A stretch of 57,744 bases of DNA from a virus. Lineage: Duplodnaviria; Caudoviricetes. Where the stretch lies: positions 1 to 57,744 of IMG/VR virus record IMGVR_UViG_3300025525_000003. One strand, given 5' to 3'. Within the stretch, counting starts at the first letter, position 1; the number at the start of each line of letters is the position of its first letter. Below the pieces are notes generated by a model, which searched no databases, was not told where the DNA came from, and saw only the letters and a program-made list of their open reading frames with translations. Shown here piece after piece: positions 3,201 to 57,709 of the stretch. A program made the position numbers and the translations under genes.

Positions 3201-6200
3201 AAGCCCGTTCTTCTTCCATGACGAAGACGCCCATTTCTCAATAACCGGAGTGGTCTGCAACGCCTCCTTCACCTTTTCGCTCTGCTCAGACAGACGCTTG
3301 TCCCAATCGAGATATTCATCCTCTTTCGGTGCAAGCTCGACTTCATAAATTCGCCCGGTTCCAAATTTCCAGCCATCCGCTTCCAGAACCGGCTTGAAGA
3401 CTCTACGCACTTCGCTGGGTGTCCAATGCAGTCCGCTGTAGGTAGTCGTTCCACGATGGTACGGATCGCGCTTGGTGGCGTTCTTGTCGACATACCGCTC
3501 GACGGTGACATAGCCATTCTGCGCATCGTAGGAGAGCACCTTGTCGAACGAGCCACCCATGGTCTGCACCACGCGGCCAGGCTTGTAATACTCGGCAAGA
3601 ATCTCTTCGCCTCTCAGCGTTTTCCCGTCCTTCGATATGGAAAGCGTTCTGATCTCCGTTTGCCTGTCAGATAGTTTTTCCTTGTACCACTTGGCAACCT
3701 CCTGACGACCAGAGAAGTAGAGCCCCCATCCGTAGGCCTGGGCACCCTCTCCGCTTCCGATGTGTTCTGTCGAGAATTCTTCGAAGTCGTGCGGCCCACC
3801 ATGGAATGCACGATGATAGACTGGCGCCAATTGTCCGGACTCGCCAAACTGTCTGCCTTCCTCGACGAACGTCCGGGCGTCGGCCAGCACGGCAAGAACT
3901 TCGGCGTCGGTCTTTGCTTCCAGCCAGTCTGCCACCTGGTCGAAGCCGTTGGCGCGCAGCCATTCCTGCACCCAGGCGATCAGCTTCTTCAAGCCGGTGA
4001 TTTTCTCGCCGCTGCCGGCAATATCGGCCAGGGCTTCCTCGATCGACAGGAAGTGTGCATCCTTCGCCGCCATCTTGTGCTCTTTGATGACGTCCTGGTT
4101 TTCCCGGATCCACTTGGCGGCGCGCGACCGCACCTGCTTGTTCGCCGACCACAGGCGCTGCAGGACGGGTTCGAGTTCCTTGCCGAAGAATCCGCGCAGG
4201 CCGTAGTGCCCCAGGCCTTCGTGGAAGACCGTGAATTGGACGCGCTGCGGGTCGTTGAGATTGCCGGCAACCAGCCATATCTGGCCACGCCAGTAGGCGC
4301 CCTCAACGTCGGCGGGTGCCGGGAAAGGAAGATCGGCTACGGATTCAACTACAGAGATTCGTGGGGCGTTGCGCCAGTTCTCGCGGAGCCGCGAGACGAC
4401 TTCCTCTACTTCACCGGCAGATAGCGCGCCACGTTCTCCGCGACTGTAGAGGCGACCCTGAAGTGTGGGGCCGGCTGCATCGCCCTGCTGCTCAACCAAC
4501 TTGCCAAGAAGTGCGCGCCATTCGGCGCCATCAACCTTGCCCGATAGGACGGTGCCTGCCAGAGCACTTCTTTCCAGCGTAGTGCGCCCCGCGTGCGCCG
4601 CTCGCGCTCCGGCCCGTCTGGATAGAGCGACGAAATCACTGCCCGAATATTCTCGTCCAGTGCTGGCGTCGCGGAATTGTCCTGAATCGAAGTCATAGTA
4701 GATGTTCTTGATGCCGGGCAAGTGGTGCTTAACCGCATTATAGGATGCTTCCAGCATCTGATTCAAGTTGAACGCGGTGTCGCCGGTCTTCCACTGCATG
4801 CCAGGCCAGTAGAAAGGCTCGCCTCTGCGCTTGCCGTCTACCCTCTGCAACTGGTCTTCATGGGGTGCCAGAAAGTCAGTCGAGCCGAACTTCAGCGCCA
4901 GCGAGATCATGTTCTCCGTGCGCCGGTAGATGGCGGGATTCGATACCCCGCCAGGATCGGCCACGAACACATAGCCGTTGTTGTGCGCCCAATTGCCGAC
5001 CAAGGCATACAGAGCCGAACCGCCGGAGCGGCCCTCTTCCAGAAGGGCGGCATTCAGCCAGACTTCCTTCTTTACCTCGTCCGTCGTCACCGTGGCGACA
5101 GTGCCGTTCTCCATCACCACATTCCAGTAGTGATTGCGGTCGCTGTAGGCGGACGTGCCCATGTCGTCGACGTACATGGTCGGATCGACCTCAGCGGCGA
5201 TCTCGGCCATGCCGATTGCCTCTGACTTCGGGTACTTGAAGATGCCGTCCTGATCAGTCAGCAGTGTAAAGAGCGTCGTGACCTTGGTGTCTTCGCCGGT
5301 CAGTGTGCGGGAGAGTCTTGCCTTCCCAGTTCTGTCCAGCCAGGCCTCGCCCATTTCGTTGAAATACAGCGCGCCCGCCGCCCGGTAATCCACGGGCATG
5401 GGGTGCGAGTATTGACTGATCTCGCTGATATTGGTCGGACTTTTGACGACAGGCGACGGCAATCGGCGCCGCGCCATAAACCTTAATCCGTTCGCTTCGG
5501 CGAATCCGGTAAAACTCTGAGGTACGCGGACGCCTTTCGGGCCGGTAGCGATGGCTTCTCCTGTTTCGGTGACGCGGAGGTGGACGCCGGCTTCGGGTTT
5601 TTCCAAACCAGCCGCTTGACGGCGTAGATCGGCAAGTCTCTCCGCGTCGATAGTGGTGCGCTGCTCTCCGGTTTCGGGTAGGAATCCATCGCTTTCATTA
5701 TAGGCAGCACGACTGAACAGCGCCACGCCTTTGTCGGTTTCCTTTGTCTCTACCGTCTTGAAGAAATTGTCAAAGGCCGATCGGATTTCCGGCACTTCGG
5801 CAGCGACAGGATAGGGATAAGATCCTTCCTTTTTCATGCCCAACGCGGCAGCAGCGTTCCAGTAGTCCTCTGAGACGATGTTGGCAAGATAGTCGTTCGA
5901 TGCGCCCTGATCCTGCAGCTTTGCGACGACGTAACTCTCGAAGGCACGCGCCGCCATCTCGAGGCCGGTACTCCAGTACGGCTTCGCCCGCGTCTGATCG
6001 AGTATCTGCGCGCGAGCCTTCAGCGCCGTGCCGTTGATGGCACGCATGGCCAGCCTGAAAGCGGCAACCATTTCCGGCCTGACGCCTTCGCCTGCCGCCT
6101 GTGTTTCTGTCAAGTAGCCGCTCTTTGCGCCACCCATTCTCGAAAAATAGTTATCGACGGCATGGAACCACTCGTGAGCTAGTGAGCCTACACCGCGTTT

Positions 6201-12806: not shown

Positions 12807-13894
12807 CGCTCGAAGCTCGACAAGGGGGGTCGAGCTCCAGTATTGCCGGATTGACTTGGTGTCCCGCTATTCCAGACCTGTCCGGCAAGTCCTTGAGCCT
12901 TGCCAACCGGGTTTTTCTCGAGCGGATCGCCGATCAGTTTGCCGACCAGCGTACCGGCCAGCTTTCTGGCTTCCGGCCCCCTGATGGGACTGCCTTTCTC
13001 GTCCGTGGCCGTCTTGACCGTGCCGTCGCGCATAACCAGTATCAGTTCGCCGCGCTCATTGATCTTGGTCGATTGAACACGATTGCCAGTCGATCCGCCG
13101 CCACCGCCACTTGACCGCACCGGCCGCGCCGGCAGGTTCGGAATCTGCACCGGCTCGCCTTCTTCGGTAATGCCGACGCCGCGCATGGAGTCGTACCAGC
13201 GAATCTGCTTGTTCGGCGTGCCCATGCTCTTGGCAATGTCTTCCGGATTGCCGCCGCCCAGCACGGATTTGAAGGCTGCCTGCGCCTGACTGCCTTTCAG
13301 TCCAAGCTGATGCACGACCTGCGCCGCCCCGATGATCTTGGCCATTTGCCGGCGATTGCTGGCGATCTCCGGCGGCAACTCGATGCCGCGCTGGCGACCC
13401 CAATTCAGCGCCATCTGCACATCCGCCTCTGTCTTGGCGCTCCCCAGCATAGAGACGAACTTGTCGTCCATGGCGTCTGCAGCCTTCCGGTCTTCCTGCG
13501 CCAGACGAAAGGCCTCTGTGCCGGCCCCGCCTTCGACAAGCGTTCTGACTGCGCTGCCATTGCGCATCCGCGGAGAAGCGGGTGCCGCCGGAACCGCAGC
13601 TTGAGGAGGCGACGCAGGAGAAGGCGTCTGCTGCGGACCGGCGACAACCTGTGAGATCGGACTGGCCGGCGGCTGGTCTGCAGGCACCTGAATCTGCCCC
13701 GGTTGCTGCGCCACCACGCCAGAAATAGCGGGCTGGTCGTACATGCCCATGGCGGCCTGCCCGAGCGCCTTGTTCTTGACCTGCTCCTGCCTGCGCTGAT
13801 CACGGCGGTAATCGCGCTCCTCGCGCTGGTAGGCCGCATTCTCCCCGGCCTGCAGGGCGGCAATTGCCGGATTGACGGTGATGTAGTTAGGCAT
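12803..13894 (-). CDS. Putative DNA ejection/internal virion protein
   Basis: 363-aa Q/P/A/G-rich ORF overlapping the start of the giant gene; position matches P22 gp20-like genes. Confidence 0.6.
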   Translation of the reverse strand: MPNYITVNPAIAALQAGENAAYQREERDYRRDQRRQEQVKNKALGQAAMGMYDQPAISGVVAQQPGQIQVPADQPPASPISQVVAGPQQTPSPASPPQAAVPAAPASPRMRNGSAVRTLVEGGAGTEAFRLAQEDRKAADAMDDKFVSMLGSAKTEADVQMALNWGRQRGIELPPEIASNRRQMAKIIGAAQVVHQLGLKGSQAQAAFKSVLGGGNPEDIAKSMGTPNKQIRWYDSMRGVGITEEGEPVQIPNLPARPVRSSGGGGGSTGNRVQSTKINERGELILVMRDGTVKTATDEKGSPIRGPEARKLAGTLVGKLIGDPLEKNPVGKAQGLAGQVWNSGTPSQSGNTGARPPLSSFER

Positions 13895-39306: not shown

Positions 39307-39383
39307 TGGTTGCGGGGGTCGGACTTGAACCGACGACCTCGGGATTATGACTCCAGCGCTCTAACCAACTGAGCTACCCCGCT
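39307..39383 (-). tRNA. Phage tRNA with CAT anticodon (Met/fMet/Ile2 identity ambiguous)
   Basis: AGCGGGG-TA-GCTC..GAGC-G-CTGGA-GTCATAA-TCCCG..GTCGG-TTCAAGT-CCGAC-CCCCGCA-A-CCA cloverleaf. Confidence 0.85.
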
Positions 39384-50493: not shown

Positions 50494-52110
50494 ATGCGCG
50501 AAATCCACGAACTCGATCAGGGCAGCGAAGCCTGGCACGCCCACCGAGCCAAGTACCTCAACGCATCGGAAGCCGCCGCCATGCTCGGCATCAGCCAGTA
50601 CCAGACCCGCGGCGACCTGTTGCGCCAGAAGGCGACCGGCTGGGTGCCTGAGGTCGACGCTGCCACGCAGCGCCGCTTCGACGACGGCCATGCGGCCGAA
50701 GCCGCCGCCCGACCGATTGCCGAAGGCATCGTCGGCGCCGACCTGTATCCGATCACGGCAACGCTGTATGTCGATGGCCTGCCCCTGTCAGCCAGCTACG
50801 ACGGCGCGACGATGGAAGAAGACATCATCTTCGAGCACAAGCTGGCCAACAAGGAACTGAAAGCCAGCCTCGCCGAGGGCATCATTCCCAACCAGTACCT
50901 GCCGCAACTGGAACAGCAACTGCTGATCCTCGGGGCAGAGAAATGCCTGTTCATGGCGTCGAACGGCGATGGCCAGTTGCACGCATGGTATGAGTCCGAC
51001 CCAGCCATGCGCGCCACCCTGATCGCCGGCTGGAAGCAGTTCGCGGAAGACCTGGCCAACTACGCGCCGCCCGAGGTCATCCCCGCCGCCGTCGCCGCGC
51101 CGCAGGCGTCCCTGCCGGCCGTCGCCGTCACCGTGACCGGCAGCATCGCCATCCGCGACAACCTGACCGTCTTTGGCGATGCCCTCACGACCTACGTCGA
51201 GCGGATCAACAGGAAGCCGGAAACCGATCAGGATTTCGCCGATCTGGAGGCGACCGCCAAGGCGCTCAAGACCGCCGAGGAAGCGCTTGACGCCGCCGAG
51301 AACAACGCCCTGGCGCAGACCGGCGACCTCGATGCCTTGCGCCGCACCATCAGCCAGTACCGAGATCTCGCGCGCCAGAACCGCCTGATGGTCGAAAAGC
51401 TGGTCAAGGCCGAGAAGGAGAACCGGCGCAACGCGATCATGCAGGGCGGAGTCACGGCGCTGCGCGCGCACGTCGACGCGCTGAACAAGCGGCTGGGCAA
51501 ACCCTACATGCCCGACACGCAATGGGCCAACTTCCCGGCGGCCATGAAGGGACTCAAGACCATGGCAAGCCTGCAGAACGCCGTGGACACCGAACTTGCC
51601 CAAGCCAAGATCAATTCCAGCGCCTGCGCTGATCGGATTGAGATCAACCTCAAGGGCTTGAGCGCGTTCTGCGGCGACACGGACTACGGTTTCCTGTTCC
51701 GCGATCTTCCCTCTCTGGTGCTGAAAGCGCCGGACGACTTCGCCGCAGCCGTGACGCTGCGCATCAACGAGCACAAGGTCGCCGAGGAAAAGCGCCTCGA
51801 AGCGGAGCGCGCCAAAATCCGCGCCGAGGAAGAGGCCAAGGCGGCAGCCAAACAGAATACTCAACCGGAGCCAGCTAAAACACCGGCGAACGAGGGAACT
51901 GGGGCTACTCCTGCTGGTGGCGCAGCAAAACCCCAAATGGTGCAAGCGGCTGCGACAGTAAGGCTGCCCACGGGGCGGCCGACGGATGACGAGATCATCG
52001 CCGCCGTCGCCCTTGCCTTCCGCGTCCATGAGAGCAAGGCAATCGAGTGGCTGCTTGACGTCGACCTGAACGCGGCATCCGATCGCATGGTGAAGGAGTT
52101 TGCAGCATGA
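50494..52110 (+). CDS. YqaJ-family (lambda exo-like) exonuclease with long coiled-coil C-terminus
   Basis: QGSEAW...R...ASEAAA.LG.S.Y; G...E..AR; SASYDG; EHK; Y..Q..QQL. Confidence 0.85.
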   Translation: MREIHELDQGSEAWHAHRAKYLNASEAAAMLGISQYQTRGDLLRQKATGWVPEVDAATQRRFDDGHAAEAAARPIAEGIVGADLYPITATLYVDGLPLSASYDGATMEEDIIFEHKLANKELKASLAEGIIPNQYLPQLEQQLLILGAEKCLFMASNGDGQLHAWYESDPAMRATLIAGWKQFAEDLANYAPPEVIPAAVAAPQASLPAVAVTVTGSIAIRDNLTVFGDALTTYVERINRKPETDQDFADLEATAKALKTAEEALDAAENNALAQTGDLDALRRTISQYRDLARQNRLMVEKLVKAEKENRRNAIMQGGVTALRAHVDALNKRLGKPYMPDTQWANFPAAMKGLKTMASLQNAVDTELAQAKINSSACADRIEINLKGLSAFCGDTDYGFLFRDLPSLVLKAPDDFAAAVTLRINEHKVAEEKRLEAERAKIRAEEEAKAAAKQNTQPEPAKTPANEGTGATPAGGAAKPQMVQAAATVRLPTGRPTDDEIIAAVALAFRVHESKAIEWLLDVDLNAASDRMVKEFAA

Positions 52111-52679
52111 GCGACGACACCGCAGAGTTACGCGAAATACCATTCCTCAATGGTCGGTATTTCGCAACGAGTGATGGCCGCATTTGGTCGAAGCGTCGAA
52201 AAAGATTTCGGTCACCGTCACTACAGATCACAGGTTACAAGACGGTAACGATTCGTGACGAGATTACAAAAAAAACCGTAACTATGTTAGTGCATCGACT
52301 CGTTGCTGCCGCATGGATACCAAATCCAGCTAAAGCACCACAGATAAATCACAAAGACGGTGACAAGACCAACAATGACGTAACAAATCTTGAATGGTGC
52401 GACGGCTCACACAACATGAAGCATGCGTGGAGGATCGGTCTGCAACCAGTGACTGCCGCAATGCAGGAAAGCGCAAGACGATGCGCAAGAAGCGGCGGAC
52501 TCAAGCGCCGGAAACTCACCGCAGAAATGATTGAGGCTGCGAGAACACGAGTTGCGTGTGGAGAGCAGCAAAAAGACATTTCATTGGAGTACGGCGTGAG
52601 CCAGGCATGTTTGAGTATGCACCTAAGCGGGAAAACCTATACAGGGTCCAACGAAACCAAGAAGGAGGAAGCGGCATGA
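52107..52679 (+). CDS. NUMOD4-like HNH endonuclease
   Basis: Y...DGRI.S; VHRLVA.AWIPNP...QINHKDGDKTNN...NLEW....N..H; AT-rich. Confidence 0.88.
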   Translation: MSDDTAELREIPFLNGRYFATSDGRIWSKRRKRFRSPSLQITGYKTVTIRDEITKKTVTMLVHRLVAAAWIPNPAKAPQINHKDGDKTNNDVTNLEWCDGSHNMKHAWRIGLQPVTAAMQESARRCARSGGLKRRKLTAEMIEAARTRVACGEQQKDISLEYGVSQACLSMHLSGKTYTGSNETKKEEAA

Positions 52680-53234: not shown

Positions 53235-54095
53235 ATGAATCCCCTGAACCCGCCAGCCCATACCGTCATTCAAGAATGCGACACCGCCGTCGCCCTCGAG
53301 GCCGGCCGCCAACTTGGCGCCGCAAAAGCCAACCCGATGAGGGACGGCATGCCCTATGCCGTCTTGAAGGATGCTCAGGGCCGCGAGCGCATCGAATACC
53401 TCGACGAAGGCCAGCAACGCCAGCCGCATCGCCTCTACGGCACTGTGAAACTGGCAGACGAGGAAAGTTTCTGCGCCTACTTCACCCAGTTCGGCGAGCC
53501 GGCGAACATCTATGCCTCGCTCGATCCGGCGCGCTTCGTGGCCGTTTTCAACGACCACAAGAAAGAAATGCCGGGGTTCCGCGATCACCGCGCCGTACTT
53601 ACGCTGGCGCATTCGCGCGAGTGGGAGGCGTGGAAGAGCATGGACGGCAAGAAATTCGACGGCAACGTCGCCTTTGCCGAATGGCTGGAGGACCAGGCGC
53701 CGGACATGGTGAAGCCCAGCGGGGCCGACATGATGCAGTTGGCGCTGAATTTCCGTGTCGCCGAGAAGATCGCCTTCGCCAACCCGACGCGGCTGCAGGA
53801 CGGCCAGACCGAACTCACCTACAGCCAGATCGTCGAGGGCTCATCGCAGAGCGCCAAGGGCGGCAAGGTGAAGATCCCGGAAACCTTCACCATCGAAATC
53901 CCCATCTTCGCCGGCCTCAACGCAGTCCGGCACGCCATCGAGGCGCGCTTCCGCTATCGCCTTGTCGGGGGTGTGCTGTCGATCTGGTATGACCTGGTGC
54001 GTCCGCACAAGGCCGTCGAGGAAGCCTTCCGCGCGGTTTGGGACTACATCCAGGATGAAACCCAAACCACGATCCTGCACGGATCACCAGAGTAA
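53235..54095 (+). CDS. DUF2303 (YfdQ-like) protein
   Basis: SF..Y; AVFNDH...FRDHRA; FAEWLED; IPETF.I.IPIF; ARFRYR. Confidence 0.85.
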   Translation: MNPLNPPAHTVIQECDTAVALEAGRQLGAAKANPMRDGMPYAVLKDAQGRERIEYLDEGQQRQPHRLYGTVKLADEESFCAYFTQFGEPANIYASLDPARFVAVFNDHKKEMPGFRDHRAVLTLAHSREWEAWKSMDGKKFDGNVAFAEWLEDQAPDMVKPSGADMMQLALNFRVAEKIAFANPTRLQDGQTELTYSQIVEGSSQSAKGGKVKIPETFTIEIPIFAGLNAVRHAIEARFRYRLVGGVLSIWYDLVRPHKAVEEAFRAVWDYIQDETQTTILHGSPE

Positions 54096-54105
54096 GGGGG
54101 AGCAC

Positions 54106-54330
54106 ATGAGAACACCCGGCAATCCCTATTCAGCGGTGCGCCTGATGCGCCACAAGACGCGCCTGAACCAGTCCGCCTTCTGGGGCCGCATCGGCGTCAC
54201 CCAATCGGGCGGCAGCCGCTACGAAACCGGCCGTCCGATTCCCAACCCGGTCAAGCTGCTGCTGACCCTGGCCCACGGTACACCGAAGGAGGCCAGGACG
54301 CTGTTCGACAAGCTGCGGGGCAAGGCATGA
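54106..54330 (+). CDS. RsaL-like XRE helix-turn-helix regulator
   Basis: LNQSAFWGRIGVTQSGGSRYETGR.IP.PV.LLL. Confidence 0.75.
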   Translation: MRTPGNPYSAVRLMRHKTRLNQSAFWGRIGVTQSGGSRYETGRPIPNPVKLLLTLAHGTPKEARTLFDKLRGKA

Positions 54331-54515
54331 CCCACCTGGAGCGCATCGAGAGAATCGAGAACGAAATCCGCGGCGTCGTCTCGCTCTACGGCATCACGTC
54401 CTGGGAGCGCGAATTCCTGAACAACGGAAAGACACGCCAGTTCATGACGGAAAAGCAGTTGGACATCCTTGCCGGGATCGAGAAGAAGGTATTCGGTGGT
54501 AACAAGGATGACTGA
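54327..54515 (+). CDS. Small hypothetical protein
   Basis: ATGA-coupled; T.WE.EFL...TEKQ..IL. Confidence 0.6.
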   Translation: MTHLERIERIENEIRGVVSLYGITSWEREFLNNGKTRQFMTEKQLDILAGIEKKVFGGNKDD

Positions 54516-54534
54516 TCGCGCATGGAGAAAAAGC

Positions 54535-54777
54535 ATGAGCAAACAACAGTATCGGCACAGAGAAGACTGCGCGATTGTGCGTGACCATCGTGATTATCCG
54601 GCAAGTGCGGTGCTGATGGACTGCGACGGCGATGTTGTCCATCGGTTTGACGAGGACTGGACGGACGACCAAATTTTTGCGGCGCTGGCCTTCGCAAACA
54701 AGGCGTATGCGACTGGTATAGAGGTAGGGCGGATGGAAAAGGCATATCAGATTCGGGCGGCGCTGAATGTGGCCTAA
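54535..54777 (+). CDS. Hypothetical protein; its stop codon lies in the attC core GCCTAAC
   Basis: GGAG SD; ends ...GTG GCC TAA C. Confidence 0.6.
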   Translation: MSKQQYRHREDCAIVRDHRDYPASAVLMDCDGDVVHRFDEDWTDDQIFAALAFANKAYATGIEVGRMEKAYQIRAALNVA

Positions 54778-54841
54778 CGCTTGAATTCAGGGGCGCGACG
54801 CAGCCTTATCGCGGCGCGTCCCTTCGCACGACGGGTTGTGC
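54772..54841 (-). repeat. Integron attC-type site 1 (70 bp)
   Basis: Minus strand: GCACAAC-CCGTC-GTGCGAAG-GGACGCGCCGCGATAAGGCTGCGTCGCGCC-CCTGAAT-TCAAGC-GTTAGGC; 5/6-nt spacers and strong central stem, but L boxes pair poorly. Confidence 0.75.
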
Positions 54842-55613
54842 GGCAACGGCTCAGAAGTCGGCGCTGGTGACACGGCGATGAAAGGAAAGCAGTGAATGAG
54901 TTGGCTCTTTTCGCGGGCGCTGGTGGCGGAATACTCGGCGGCAAGCTGCTCGGGTGGAGAACCGTCTGCGCCGTTGAGCGTGATGCCTACGCCGCACAAG
55001 TTCTGGCACAGCGGCAAAACGATGGATGCCTTGAGCCTTTCCCGATTTGGTCTGACGTGTGCAGTTTTGACGGAAGACCTTGGGCGGGAATTGTTGACGT
55101 TGTTTCTGGCGGCTTCCCTTGCCAAGACATCAGCAGCGCAGGGAAAGGAGAAGGACTCGACGGCGAACGCTCCGGCCTTTGGCGAGAAATGGCCCGGATT
55201 GTTGGCGAGGTTCGACCGAGATTCGTTTTTGTGGAGAACTCCCCAATGCTCACTCTTCGAGGACTCGGAACCGTGCTTGGAGACTTGGCCTCGCTGGGGT
55301 TTGATGCGCGCTGGGGAGTGCTGGGAGCTTCCGCCTTTGGTGCGCCACACAGAAGAGAGCGAATCTGGATTGCTGCCTACGCTGACCGTGATTTCGTGCG
55401 AGCACCCTGGGCGCTTCAAGATCAAGCCAGGGCAGCAGACGTGCATCTCGGCGGAACTGGCGAAGCGGGACGGGTGGAAAGTTGGTGGAAAGTACAGCCC
55501 GAGCCATGCAGCGTGGTTCATGGGGTGGCCGGAGTGGTGGACGAGCTTAGGCCGCTCGGTAACGGACAGGTTCCATGCGTGGCAGCAAGCGCATGGCGGA
55601 TTTTGACGCACAA
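54778..55613 (-). mobile_element. Gene cassette A (836 bp) carrying the split C5 methyltransferase, genes inverted relative to attC
   Basis: Core boxes flanking the genes are mutually complementary: GTTGTGCG (54835-54842) vs CGCACAAC (55607-55614). Confidence 0.7.
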
Positions 55614-55662
55614 CGTAGAAGGTGAGCGGGGGCGCGCTTGCGCGACCTCCGCTCGACCGTAG
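54892..55662 (+). CDS. DNA cytosine-5 methyltransferase, large (alpha) subunit lacking motif IX
   Basis: LFAGAGG (I), GGFPCQD (IV), VENS (VI), HRRERIW (VIII), LGNGQVP (X). Confidence 0.9.
   Translation: MNELALFAGAGGGILGGKLLGWRTVCAVERDAYAAQVLAQRQNDGCLEPFPIWSDVCSFDGRPWAGIVDVVSGGFPCQDISSAGKGEGLDGERSGLWREMARIVGEVRPRFVFVENSPMLTLRGLGTVLGDLASLGFDARWGVLGASAFGAPHRRERIWIAAYADRDFVRAPWALQDQARAADVHLGGTGEAGRVESWWKVQPEPCSVVHGVAGVVDELRPLGNGQVPCVAASAWRILTHNVEGERGRACATSARP
54896..55606 (+). CDS. Putative methyltransferase small (beta) subunit in the +1 frame, nested in alpha
   Basis: 236 open codons overlapping alpha; C-terminal SPSHAAWFMGWPEWWT resembles motif IX; stop abuts the attC core. Confidence 0.7.
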   Translation: MSWLFSRALVAEYSAASCSGGEPSAPLSVMPTPHKFWHSGKTMDALSLSRFGLTCAVLTEDLGRELLTLFLAASLAKTSAAQGKEKDSTANAPAFGEKWPGLLARFDRDSFLWRTPQCSLFEDSEPCLETWPRWGLMRAGECWELPPLVRHTEESESGLLPTLTVISCEHPGRFKIKPGQQTCISAELAKRDGWKVGGKYSPSHAAWFMGWPEWWTSLGRSVTDRFHAWQQAHGGF

Positions 55663-55670
55663 TGTTCGGC
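55608..55670 (-). repeat. Integron attC-type site 2 (63 bp)
   Basis: Minus strand: GCCGAAC-ACTAC-GGTCGAGC-GGAGGTCGCGCAAGCGCGCCCCC-GCTCACC-TTCTAC-GTTGTGC; L boxes pair perfectly apart from the canonical extra base. Confidence 0.85.
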
Positions 55671-55877
55671 GTATTACGGAGACTGACTTTATGAAGCTGA
55701 TGCAGCACGAAGGCAATTTCAGGCCGATAGCGATAGTGCTTGAGACAGAGGAAGACGCGGCCACATTCTGGGACATGGTACTGAGGATCGAGAAATGCAC
55801 GGACGTTGAGGCCGAGCATGACATGGCTGTGAAAATTTCCAACTGGTTCAGCAATCAGGCGAAGCTGTGACGCCGAA
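55614..55877 (-). mobile_element. Gene cassette B (264 bp), gene inverted relative to attC
   Basis: GTTCGGCGT (55664-55672) is the exact complement of ACGCCGAAC (55870-55878). Confidence 0.72.
55691..55870 (+). CDS. Cassette-borne hypothetical protein (59 aa, MKLMQHEGNF...)
   Basis: GGAG SD at 55678; stop TGA abuts the core site. Confidence 0.65.
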   Translation: MKLMQHEGNFRPIAIVLETEEDAATFWDMVLRIEKCTDVEAEHDMAVKISNWFSNQAKL

Positions 55878-55908
55878 CATTAAGTAGACCTTCCGTGCAA
55901 GGTAGACC
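55872..55908 (-). promoter_or_regulatory. attI-like recombination site
   Basis: Minus strand GGTCTAC-11nt-GGTCTAC-TTAAT-GTTCGGC: core G/TT, 5-nt spacer, L-like box and a direct repeat of that box; no attC hairpin. Confidence 0.55.
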
Positions 55909-56220
55909 ATGTATCGAGTGACCAAAAAAGCCGCAGCGCAGCGCACCAAGTTGGCGAACATTCGCCGGTCGCGCGACGCCGCCAGAATCGCCGAGCCGGC
56001 ACCGGACTATCCTGCCGTGCTGCCGGATCTGAGGCGGCGCATCACAATCGAAACATTCGACTTCGGCCATGAAATCCACGTCATCGAAATGTTCAGGTCT
56101 GACAGAATTGATTGCTTTCGCGTGGAGGTCGACGGCAAGCCATGGAAGGCGCGGATAGGCTGGTCACAAATCCTCGCCGGGTTGCGTAAGTCCATGCCGA
56201 GGGTGGGGGCGGCAGAATGA
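55909..56220 (+). CDS. Hypothetical protein
   Basis: 103-aa ORF, AAGG SD, ATGA-coupled to xis. Confidence 0.65.
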   Translation: MYRVTKKAAAQRTKLANIRRSRDAARIAEPAPDYPAVLPDLRRRITIETFDFGHEIHVIEMFRSDRIDCFRVEVDGKPWKARIGWSQILAGLRKSMPRVGAAE

Positions 56221-56468
56221 GCCTCGTCACCCAGATGTTCCTGCTCGACAAGTACGGACCGATTCTGTCTGTCGCCAACTTGGCCGACCTGATGGATCGC
56301 GACGAGCAGACCATCCGCAACCAGATCAGCGCCGGGGCATTCGAGATACCGACGACGCGCAACCGTAGCGGTCGCCGCGTCGCGCACTACCAGGATGCCG
56401 CCGCCTATATCGACAGTCTCAAATCCCCTTCGCCTTCTTCGCCTGCTCAAGCCGTTCGTGCAGCTTGA
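56217..56468 (+). CDS. Excisionase-like (PrtN/AlpA-type) DNA-binding protein
   Basis: LLDKYGP.LSV..LA..M.....TIRNQISAG.F.IP; last gene of the early operon, facing int. Confidence 0.7.
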   Translation: MSLVTQMFLLDKYGPILSVANLADLMDRDEQTIRNQISAGAFEIPTTRNRSGRRVAHYQDAAAYIDSLKSPSPSSPAQAVRAA

Positions 56469-57468
56469 TCGGGTCGATGTTGGTGTAGCGCTCCTGAACT
56501 TCCCATTTCCGCGGCCCACCGGCCGCCGTGATCTCCTGCGGGGTCAGTCCGAGCTCGGCCAGTGAACTGGTCGCCTCACGCTTCAAGTCGTGCAGATGCA
56601 GATTCTCGATGCCGCAGGCGTCGCAGGCCCATTTGAAATATTTGCTGACCGTGCCCGGCTTGAACGGAAAGATGCGTGGTTCGCCGTCGCGCCTTGGCTG
56701 GCGCTGGATGATCTCCCAGGCTTCGGCTGGCAGCAACACGAACTCGTCATTGCCTTCCTTTTTTCGCGGATGCTTGCGGTCGCGCACCACCACGCCGCGG
56801 CGCGCCGGATCAAGGTCGCGCCACTCGATGCGGGATACCTCTCCGCGGCGCAGGATGGACTGCCTGGCGACTTCTATGATGTCTTGCATGGGGATGTCGT
56901 ACTCGGGATGATCGCGGAACCAGCGGTAGATGCGTGCCAGTTCGTCGGCCTGTGGGCGCCTGGTGCGTTTCTTCGCCTCGGCGATCAGGCCGTAGTGCTG
57001 CAGGGTCGGCCGTGCCTCACCGACGATGTCCGGCAGGCGCAGGCGCAGCAGGCTGGCCGTGTGCTTGAGGACGGTGCCCAGCTTGGAGACCTCCATGTTG
57101 AGCGCCACAGGACCGCTGCCACCGCGCTTCCGGCCGGTGCCTTCGCGGCGCCGGCCCTGTGCCCAAGCCAGCAACTTGGCCGTGTCGAGCTCTGCCGCCG
57201 AATGGTGCCCAAGCCCATCGGCCAGGTGCGCGAGGATGTAGTGCTCGTTGCTTTTCGGGTTGATCGGCCGGCCCGAGGCGGCGCGGGCCTCGCGGTAAGC
57301 CAGAATGAGATCGGCAATCCTGGCGTTGCCGTGGTCGTTGCCGCCCTCGATCTCAAGCACCCAGCGCGCAGCTGCGGCTTTCGTCGGGAAGGTCTTTGAG
57401 ATAGACTTGCGGCCCGGCTGGCGGATCTGCGCGCGCCAGCGATTGCCGATCTTGAGAATGGATGCCAC
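56419..57468 (-). CDS. int: Tyrosine recombinase/phage integrase (not IntI)
   Basis: MASI.K....WRAQIR..G...SKTF.TK arm-binding N-terminus; LRRGEV, RDRKHP, HDLKRE, ERY. Confidence 0.88.
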   Translation of the reverse strand: MASILKIGNRWRAQIRQPGRKSISKTFPTKAAAARWVLEIEGGNDHGNARIADLILAYREARAASGRPINPKSNEHYILAHLADGLGHHSAAELDTAKLLAWAQGRRREGTGRKRGGSGPVALNMEVSKLGTVLKHTASLLRLRLPDIVGEARPTLQHYGLIAEAKKRTRRPQADELARIYRWFRDHPEYDIPMQDIIEVARQSILRRGEVSRIEWRDLDPARRGVVVRDRKHPRKKEGNDEFVLLPAEAWEIIQRQPRRDGEPRIFPFKPGTVSKYFKWACDACGIENLHLHDLKREATSSLAELGLTPQEITAAGGPRKWEVQERYTNIDPIKLHERLEQAKKAKGI

Positions 57469-57634: not shown

Positions 57635-57709
57635 CCCCTCGTAGTTCAATGGATAGAACGGCCGCCTCCTAAGCGGCAAATACAGGTTCGATTCCTGTCG
57701 AGGGGGCCA
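57635..57709 (+). tRNA. tRNA-Arg(CCT), containing the right att core (57637-57648)
   Basis: CCCCTCG-TA-GTTC..GAAC-G-GCCGC-CTCCTAA-GCGGC..ACAGG-TTCGATT-CCTGT-CGAGGGG-G-CCA. Confidence 0.95.

Follow-up and report, generated by a model that had tools for sequence, protein, structure and literature searches.

The stretch of DNA analysed in this study, hereafter the window, is the complete IMG/VR virus record IMGVR_UViG_3300025525_000003, which comprises 57,744 bp, is estimated to be 96% complete and has no host genome attached. Between two small genes of its + strand, beginning at 54535 and 55909, the window carries two imperfect palindromes, each followed by a gene. The original prediction read these palindromes as integron attC sites lying in reverse, and the region as an inverted cassette array without an integrase in the early operon of a phage. 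In this study the palindromes were recovered at the predicted positions, and comparison with bacterial integrons and with related phages supported that both are attC-type sites. The features of the region are as follows (a slash in a core, as in AA/C, marks the crossover; aa, amino acids).

54535-54777, +: 80-aa backbone gene, with its TAA stop (54775-54777) inside the first core, GGCCTAAC
54771-54842, + strand carrying the bottom strand: attC site 1, 'TGAATTCA' type, 3' arm degenerate and L box unpaired; 35.8 bits with model R2 (see below)
54778-55613, +: 836-bp cassette, consisting of site 1 and the methyltransferase gene, bounded AA/C to AA/C
54892-55662, +: C5 DNA methyltransferase open reading frame (ORF), 256 aa; PF00145, 3.8e-31; phrog_363, 5.7e-64, residues 1-240
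55607-55671, + strand carrying the bottom strand: attC site 2, 'GGTRAGCGG...CCGCTYGACC' type, extra G in the 3' arm; 50.7 bits with model R1 (see below)
55614-55877, +: 264-bp cassette, consisting of site 2 and the 59-aa gene
55691-55870, +: 59-aa gene (ORF), function unassigned
55871-55908, +: docking junction, with core CGCCGAAC, crossover between 55877 and 55878, then the conserved leader of the next gene
55909-56220, +: 103-aa conserved backbone gene, which marks the docking site

Cores and hairpins of the two sites

On the + strand each site runs from an AAC core to a GTT core, in the manner of the attC consensus (RYYYAAC ... GTTRRRY). These cores are GGCCTAAC (54771-54778) and GTTGTGCG (54835-54842) at site 1, and CGCACAAC (55607-55614) and GTTCGGCG (55664-55671) at site 2; a third core, CGCCGAAC, lies at 55871-55878. 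One core, read on the top strand, fits the consensus fully (GTTAGGC). As had been proposed, the cores of a single site do not match each other (3 mismatches of 8 at site 1, and 2 at site 2) and instead match across each gene, with GTTGTGCG/CGCACAAC and GTTCGGCG/CGCCGAAC being perfectly complementary; the predicted cassette sizes of 836 and 264 bp were likewise correct. Both sites agree with the spacer and box lengths counted earlier for the minus strand; in site 1, however, pairing between the L'' and L' boxes is limited to about 3 positions. At site 2 the arms GGTGAGCGG and CCGCTCGACC pair, with one extra G in the 3' arm on the + strand, and this agrees with the + strand being the bottom strand, given what we take to be the arm that bears the extra bases in known attC sites. 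Site 1 looks damaged, and only the 264-bp cassette has a fully formed attC; because the L-box pairing of site 1 is lost, the methyltransferase cassette may be fixed and no longer mobile.

Two candidate lines of evidence were rejected. The stability of the hairpins was set aside because site 1 folds within the range of shuffled sequences, and the folding of site 2 is modest against shuffles (z -2.33). The length of the flanking inverted repeats was set aside as well, since the two repeats are 2 out of 51 comparable pairs in 1.9 kb. Hairpin fold and repeat length do not exceed chance, and the attC identification is carried by the models and the relatives described below. No Rfam family matched at the palindromes, no T-run follows either hairpin, and no sigma-70-like promoter was found within 54300-56300.

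Two attC types in viruses and bacteria

Relatives of the region were found through the flanking proteins, and they carry the same kinds of element between other genes. By sequence, the elements are of two types. Oriented like the + strand of the window, type B reads ...YAAC, 5-6 nucleotides (nt), GGTRAGCGG, a loop, CCGCTYGACC, 5 nt and GTT..., and type A reads ...AAC, 3 nt, TGAATTCA, a stem, TGGAATGA, 3 nt and GTT.... The inner pattern of type B was present in 74 viral contigs, and nearly all of these also have the AAC and GTT flanks, which lie outside it, whereas the type A pattern was present in at least 120 viral contigs; with two such narrow patterns this widespread, the feature is not rare. 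Bacterial contigs contained at least 120 stretches with the type B pattern, and among the matches listed 28 had proper flanks, mainly in Burkholderiales and their relatives. An integron integrase (IntI) above the TIGR02249 cut-off was present in four of five bacterial genomes with type B sites, and in two of the genomes (G001 and G002) these sites formed arrays directly adjoining intI. Moreover, the type A pattern occurred in 38 of 401 sampled Burkholderiales genomes, with 55 matches versus 0 for a reversed-pattern control, and 28 of these 38 genomes had IntI above the same cut-off.

Covariance models were built from bacterial sites only. R1 was trained on 36 type B attC sites, of which 10 came from the intI-bearing genome G001 (2 from locus L210, beside intI, and 8 from locus L200, whose adjacency to intI is not established) and 2 from sites adjoining intI in G002, and R2 was trained on 27 type A attC sites, with 7 of its loci near intI. 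The full window was scanned on both strands with filters off. R1 gave 50.7 bits at site 2 (55607-55671; expect value, E, 9.1e-12) and 12.1 bits at site 1 (E about 1), and R2 gave its best match in the window at site 1 (54771-54842; 35.8 bits, E 1.2e-7) and 21.1 bits at site 2 (E 0.002). The best other match on either strand, a full-length R1 match at 13109-13173 on the minus strand (14.4 bits, E 0.2), was not picked up by R2 at E up to 10 and is probably due to chance. The check first suggested, a covariance-model search of both strands, was made here with our own bacterial models: it returned both palindromes, with the top strand on the minus strand, and nothing else significant. These models are not those of IntegronFinder, and their training sites were chosen by a pattern derived from the phage elements, so part of the R1 score of site 2 follows from that choice, unlike the flank features and the scores that each site obtains with the model of the opposite type. 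Two attC sites 836 bp apart with no intI place the region among the clusters of attC sites lacking an integron integrase (CALINs), with the minimum of two sites taken from Qi et al. 2023 (PMC9892861); an intI beside the array, which defines a complete integron, is absent from the 57.7-kb record.

Orientation of the sites and ownership of the genes

The orientation of the window's + strand corresponded to the intI strand at 13 of 13 type A sites lying within about 5 kb of intI on the same contig, and also in the type B arrays of G001 and G002. In integrons intI is read away from the array, so that the intI strand is the bottom strand of attC. The + strand of the window is therefore the bottom strand of both sites, which supports the original assignment of the minus strand as the canonical top strand. 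A cassette usually has its gene on the top strand, upstream of its own attC. Here both genes, that of the methyltransferase and the 59-aa gene, are on the bottom strand and follow their attC, and the claim that each gene reads away from its attC, in the direction of the phage operon, is likewise supported.

Which gene belongs to which attC was indicated by the flanks. Among 61 distinct type B viral elements, no pair shared the 400-nt left flank and 23 pairs shared the right flank, mostly from the first GTT base. In 94 type A viral elements, 43 pairs shared the right flank only (34 of them from GTT), 11 the left flank only and 2 both. For example, the elements L035 and L044 have an identical attC and right flank and unlike left flanks. 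Such sharing of the right flank is predicted by a crossover at the 5' AA/C, which is G/TT on the top strand, the IntI cleavage point as quoted in Qi et al. 2023 (PMC9892861), and a crossover at this position assigns each attC to the gene that follows it in the phage. Furthermore, in the window and the arrays of four relatives the 8-nt cassette ends were perfectly complementary in 24 of 27 cases, with one single mismatch and two failures, against a mean of 2.0 and a maximum of 8 perfect matches in 2000 trials with shuffled partners; the two cores within a single attC matched perfectly in 1 of 27. This pairing across genes and the relatives support the predicted cassette junctions at AA/C.

One small gene is common to a phage relative (L003, 2831-3057) and a prophage in genome G216 (L409, 9563-9785), with 88% identity from the GTT core to the AAC core only. 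It was the one common cassette when cassette bodies were compared with a few bacterial loci, and none was found in an intI-linked array. This shared gene may reflect occasional exchange at the 3' core (top-strand recombination) or replacement of the attC.

A shared docking site in related phages

Eleven docking loci were compared, namely the window, L003, L004/L250, L006, L007/L390, L384, L378, L379, L406 and the prophages L409 and L410. Homologs of the 103-aa gene at 55909 mark these loci, with 37-75% identity in L003, L004, L006, L007, L378, L379, L384 and L406, 59% in L409 and 45% in L410. An AAC stands directly before the conserved leader of this gene in all eleven, and the sequence to its left differs in each; three of the loci have an identical leader, yet are unlike immediately left of the AAC. 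The expectation that relatives would show empty sites or other cassettes with junctions at AA/C was thus borne out, in the form of other cassettes. The arithmetic by which removal of both cassettes restores a single empty site is correct, but a natural empty site was seen in none of the eleven. L001 and L002 were considered as empty sites and rejected because their homologs of the 80-aa gene (61-63% identity) lie in other contexts.

When eight docking loci were scanned with the models, 49 of 50 hits at E of 0.05 or below were on the gene strand, and the single off-strand hit was a reverse reading of a strong forward hit. Upstream of the 55909 homolog there were 9 attC sites in L003, 8 in L250, 5 in L006, 3 in L384 and 1 each in L390, L378 and L379. 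The docking site coincides with the TAA/C end of the upstream unit, and the leader that follows contains two copies of GTAGACC (55884-55890 and 55902-55908). The docking site may function in an attI-like manner, and transcription would enter the array from the end far from it. L003 has one more attC (4496-4557), located downstream of its 55909 homolog and followed by an 84-aa ORF and a homolog (56% identity) of the 59-aa gene; this unit (4496-5030) ends with CGGCTAAC and then only the first few bases of a type A attC. It may represent a second point of insertion, or else a site beside the integrase gene that has been truncated.

Coding direction and cargo

The coding strand was judged by ORF length and by matches to PHROG families. 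In the first test, the gene-strand ORF starting at most 200 nt after an attC was compared with the opposite-strand ORF ending there. The gene-strand ORF was the longer one in 46 of 55 type B and 67 of 87 type A cases on viral contigs. In bacteria, the usual direction prevailed at 24 of 31 type A sites (7 gene-strand), including 6 of 7 near intI, and at 17 of 27 type B sites on genome contigs (10 gene-strand). In direction, phages contrast strongly with bacteria, though not cleanly. The GC content at third codon positions was not informative for the coding strand in bacterial arrays. In genome G001 the units of the L210 array (beside intI) and of the L200 array measure about 260-900 bp, and their longest ORFs are often below 70 aa on either strand.

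In the second test, the 23 gene-strand ORFs in the arrays of relatives matched 12 PHROG families, versus one family, matched by two members, for the 21 opposite-strand ORFs. The matched families include two C5 methyltransferases, one Dam-like enzyme and several phage families without known function, and one array ORF had a weak Pfam match to the restriction-alleviation protein Lar (E 3.9e-4). Among 51 gene-strand ORFs on other viral contigs, the matches included several methyltransferase families (among them phrog_67, matched by 8, and phrog_363, by 3) and the Mom-like family phrog_1384, matched by 4; of 25 opposite-strand ORFs scanned on these contigs, 2 matched any PHROG family. By these family matches, the cargo of the cassettes points to accessory functions in anti-restriction.

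The methyltransferase ORF of the window also matched TIGR00675 (3.1e-23, under the cut-off of that model). It has no stop within its own cassette and continues for 16 codons into site 2 (55612-55662), so that the tail of the protein depends on the next element of the array. Of the two methyltransferase homologs in L006, one is terminated by the TAA that the next core contains, and the other has its stop within the docking-site leader. A 236-aa ORF in the +1 frame (54896-55606, +) covers nearly the entire methyltransferase gene and matches phrog_1008 'DNA methyltransferase' (4.6e-18) and phrog_26627 (2.5e-5). Both methyltransferase genes of L006 keep this relative frame open, over 156-164 codons, and tblastn detects it there; the DNA of the methyltransferase gene is 70-85% identical in phages of very different hosts. 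Dual coding or miscalled frames in the databases are both possible for this ORF. The 59-aa gene matched no family in Pfam, PHROGs or NCBIfam.

Evidence from sequencing runs

Sequencing runs X1 to X4 were examined, as contigs only; gaps in contig cover were not taken as evidence, and runs X5-X24, which have small shares, contribute nothing to the conclusions. In run X1, a possible source of the window, a 267-nt contig corresponds exactly to 55612-55878, that is, to the 264-bp cassette plus AAC. Its depth was 62, versus 24.7 and 25.4 for the flanking sequence (2.5-fold), and a second, unlike context joins it on each side. The depth and the double contexts indicate that the 264-bp cassette is repeated, with boundaries at the cores. 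Moreover, in contigs from two further runs, X2 and X3, the match to the 55909 region sets in exactly at 55876, and the letters before it are unlike. A close homolog of the methyltransferase cassette was found in run X4 in contig pieces, 54829-55118 and 55102-55607.

The type A stretch of site 1 (54769-54835) occurred in very many contigs of runs X3 and X4, one from soil and one from activated sludge, with summed depths of 1686 and 436; type A attC sites are abundant in these two samples.

Neighbouring genes and the integrase question

The genes around the cassette region are listed below.

50494-52110, +: RecE-like exonuclease
52107-52679, +: HNH endonuclease
53235-54095, +: DUF2303 protein
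between the DUF2303 gene and the 80-aa gene (54535-54777), +: small ORFs
56217-56468, +: excisionase-like gene; phrog_1300, 5e-8
56419-57468, -: phage tyrosine integrase; PF00589, 6.6e-10; phrog_1, 4.8e-30; no TIGR02249 match
57635-57709, +: tRNA-Arg(CCT), ARAGORN

The cassette region is an accessory stretch of the early operon of a temperate phage, between the RecE-like exonuclease module and xis/int, and the tRNA-Arg(CCT) gene is likely the attachment site at the prophage end. The two backbone genes that frame it, the 80-aa gene and the 103-aa gene, matched no family in Pfam, PHROGs or NCBIfam. A blastn search of a phage database matched the methyltransferase gene only and found no close relative of the phage. 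The phage also carries a tRNA-Met gene (39307-39383, -).

The reported absence of IntI was confirmed, as no TIGR02249 match was found in the 57.7-kb record, and the window's own integrase is an ordinary tyrosine recombinase. Fifty of 69 attC-carrying viral records were searched for IntI, which was present in 2 (one of them at a provirus contig end) and absent from 48, and none was found in four attC-carrying records with terminal repeats that were rated complete. The genomes of the prophage relatives L409 and L410, which have attC sites upstream, carry IntI on other contigs. Given the attC identity of the sites and the presence of IntI in genomes carrying these attC types, the simplest reading is that a host integron integrase would perform the cassette exchange.

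Discussion

The observation that started this study was confirmed, and its interpretation was supported in part. In our estimate, with a probability of roughly 0.75, the region is a short integron-type cassette array without an integrase of its own, built of attC-first cassettes and located in the early operon of a temperate phage. In the mechanism proposed here, a host of the Burkholderiales type would supply the integron integrase, which would fold the bottom strand and cut between the second A and the C of the 5' AAC. Circular cassettes would be inserted or excised at AA/C just upstream of the 55909 gene, or between attC sites. The cassette genes would then be expressed by read-through, as expected for genes that run with the operon and have no promoter-like site of their own.

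Several observations weigh against this reading. With regard to the sites themselves, three of the four 7-nt cores are each off RYYYAAC/GTTRRRY at one degenerate position, and site 1 has an inner stem with L boxes that pair at about 3 positions and folds no better than shuffled sequences (z -1.12, with 25 of 200 shuffles as stable). The leader that is conserved at the docking site also contains the ribosome-binding region of the 55909 gene, so its conservation need not mean binding of IntI, and the eleven loci include no empty site. With regard to orientation, the 14 intI-linked type B sites of L200, L210 and L211 divide into 9 gene-strand and 5 opposite-strand cases, all with short ORFs. The rule that an attC travels with its gene has exceptions, since the attC bodies on both sides of the cassette common to L003 and L409 differ and in run X4 the homolog of the methyltransferase begins close to the 3' core of site 1. 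Because the 264-bp cassette is repeated in run X1, the window's own join across it is not confirmable from contigs; contigs, moreover, cannot show circles or excision, and no recombination was observed. Finally, the identity of the host is not derivable from a virus record without a host genome.

It could be argued that the array is a static relic, a piece of a bacterial array or a set of cassettes dropped a single time by IntI at a secondary site, which was captured by an ancestor of the phage and is merely inherited, with no ongoing exchange and no dedicated docking site. The degeneration of site 1 and the lack of an empty site would fit such a history. Off-target or illegitimate recombination is proposed for some phage attC clusters by Qi et al. 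2023 (PMC9892861), and insertion at a multitude of GWT sites was demonstrated by Loot et al. (bioRxiv 10.1101/2022.09.11.507474). A relic nevertheless appears unlikely, because eleven relatives carry different cassettes in different numbers at the same AAC, the 264-bp cassette stands in two contexts within one sample, and L035 and L044 join an identical attC and right flank to unlike left flanks. Moreover, the gene orientation is mostly opposite to that of the bacterial sets (7 versus 24 for type A, and 10 versus 17 for type B), and the cargo matches phage families.

It is quite improbable that another recombinase, either the phage tyrosine integrase or an unrecognised phage enzyme, uses the sites. 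The gene for the phage integrase lies 0.5 kb from the docking site, IntI is absent from 48 of the 50 viral records, and the window comes without a host genome. However, the crossover position equals the G/TT of IntI cited in Qi et al. 2023 (PMC9892861), and the sites belong to the same families of sequence and structure as bacterial attC sites beside intI. The phage integrase lacks the IntI signature and stands beside tRNA-Arg, like an ordinary prophage integrase.

Mosaic joints in phages often fall at gene boundaries, and the hairpins are located between genes. That they are regulatory or boundary elements of the phage (terminators, RNA processing sites or linkers), shuffled by homologous recombination at short shared sequences, is nonetheless highly improbable even though weak terminator activity has been ascribed to attC sites (Qi et al. 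2023, PMC9892861), as neither hairpin has a T-run terminator, a promoter-like site or an Rfam match, and homologous exchange predicts neither the pairing of cores across genes (24 of 27) nor the one-sided linkage.

The reading of the region as an attC-first array can be compared with known systems. The statement in the original prediction that no such phage system had been described was too broad. In Qi et al. 2023 (PMC9892861), integrons or attC clusters are reported in 21 phages, with five methyltransferase cassettes, and these include attC clusters without an integrase; IntI1 was found to recombine phage attC sites. Those CALINs resemble the present array in carrying attC cassettes in a phage without intI, in their methyltransferases and in the proposed role of a host integrase. 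They differ in that their cassettes, as described there, mostly have the usual direction, whereas here the genes lie on the bottom strand of attC, the arrays, which reach at least 9 sites, run one way, and a whole group of temperate phages has a single dock in common, beside a conserved gene near xis/int. For the inverted orientation, the long one-way arrays and the shared phage docking site, no description was found in the full-text literature searched, including the accessible portions of Qi et al. and Loot et al. Likewise, the sections seen of the IntegronFinder 2.0 paper (PMC9024848) contain nothing on phage arrays, and those of the preprint of Darracq et al. (10.1101/2024.07.02.601686) mention no phage-borne arrays. 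The inverted orientation, the long arrays and the shared docking site therefore appear to be new.

In addition, according to Loot et al. (bioRxiv 10.1101/2022.09.11.507474), IntI inserts cassettes at GWT sites of genomes, which gives single sites and small clusters. Such attG insertions are similar to the phage arrays in that cassettes lie outside an integron, at a minimal core of the G/TT type, and are expressed only through a neighbouring promoter, but in the phages the same site is reused across relatives and the result is arrays rather than one-off insertions. The chromosomal integrons of Burkholderiales have the same two attC types, the same RYYYAAC ... GTTRRRY cores, a crossover at G/TT and complementary cassette ends. 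In contrast to them, the phage has no intI, no recognised attI and no recognised cassette promoter (Pc), the direction of its genes is reversed and its cargo matches phage protein families. The 'moron' regions of lambdoid phages comprise small, dispensable, variable genes between the recombination genes and xis/int. They have the same genome position and the same kind of gene as the phage cassette region, but the variation described here is bounded by the attC crossover signature and not by promoter-terminator units or plain mosaic joints.

In conclusion, the region represents a new variety of attC cluster carried by a phage, characterized by attC-first cassettes, a recurrent docking point and cargo of anti-restriction appearance; its activity and its dependence on IntI are predicted from sequence. 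We regard it as an even bet that a widespread group of phages keeps reversed, integrase-less integron platforms of this kind, in which one-way attC-first arrays at a fixed dock in the early operon, holding methyltransferase, anti-restriction and unassigned early genes, would be serviced by a host IntI. The question of why the cassettes are attC-first has several possible answers, including docking at TAA/C stops, expression by read-through, and which strand becomes single-stranded in the phage. Recent work has shown that bacterial integrons store genes of anti-phage defence. If the present reading is true, the phage arrays would be the counterpart of these stores, with a separate pool of cassettes whose build runs counter to that of bacterial cassettes, and the many small unassigned genes in the arrays would be testable candidates for anti-defence genes. 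If phages swap counter-defence cassettes by means of a host integrase, integron recombination would serve both sides of the arms race.

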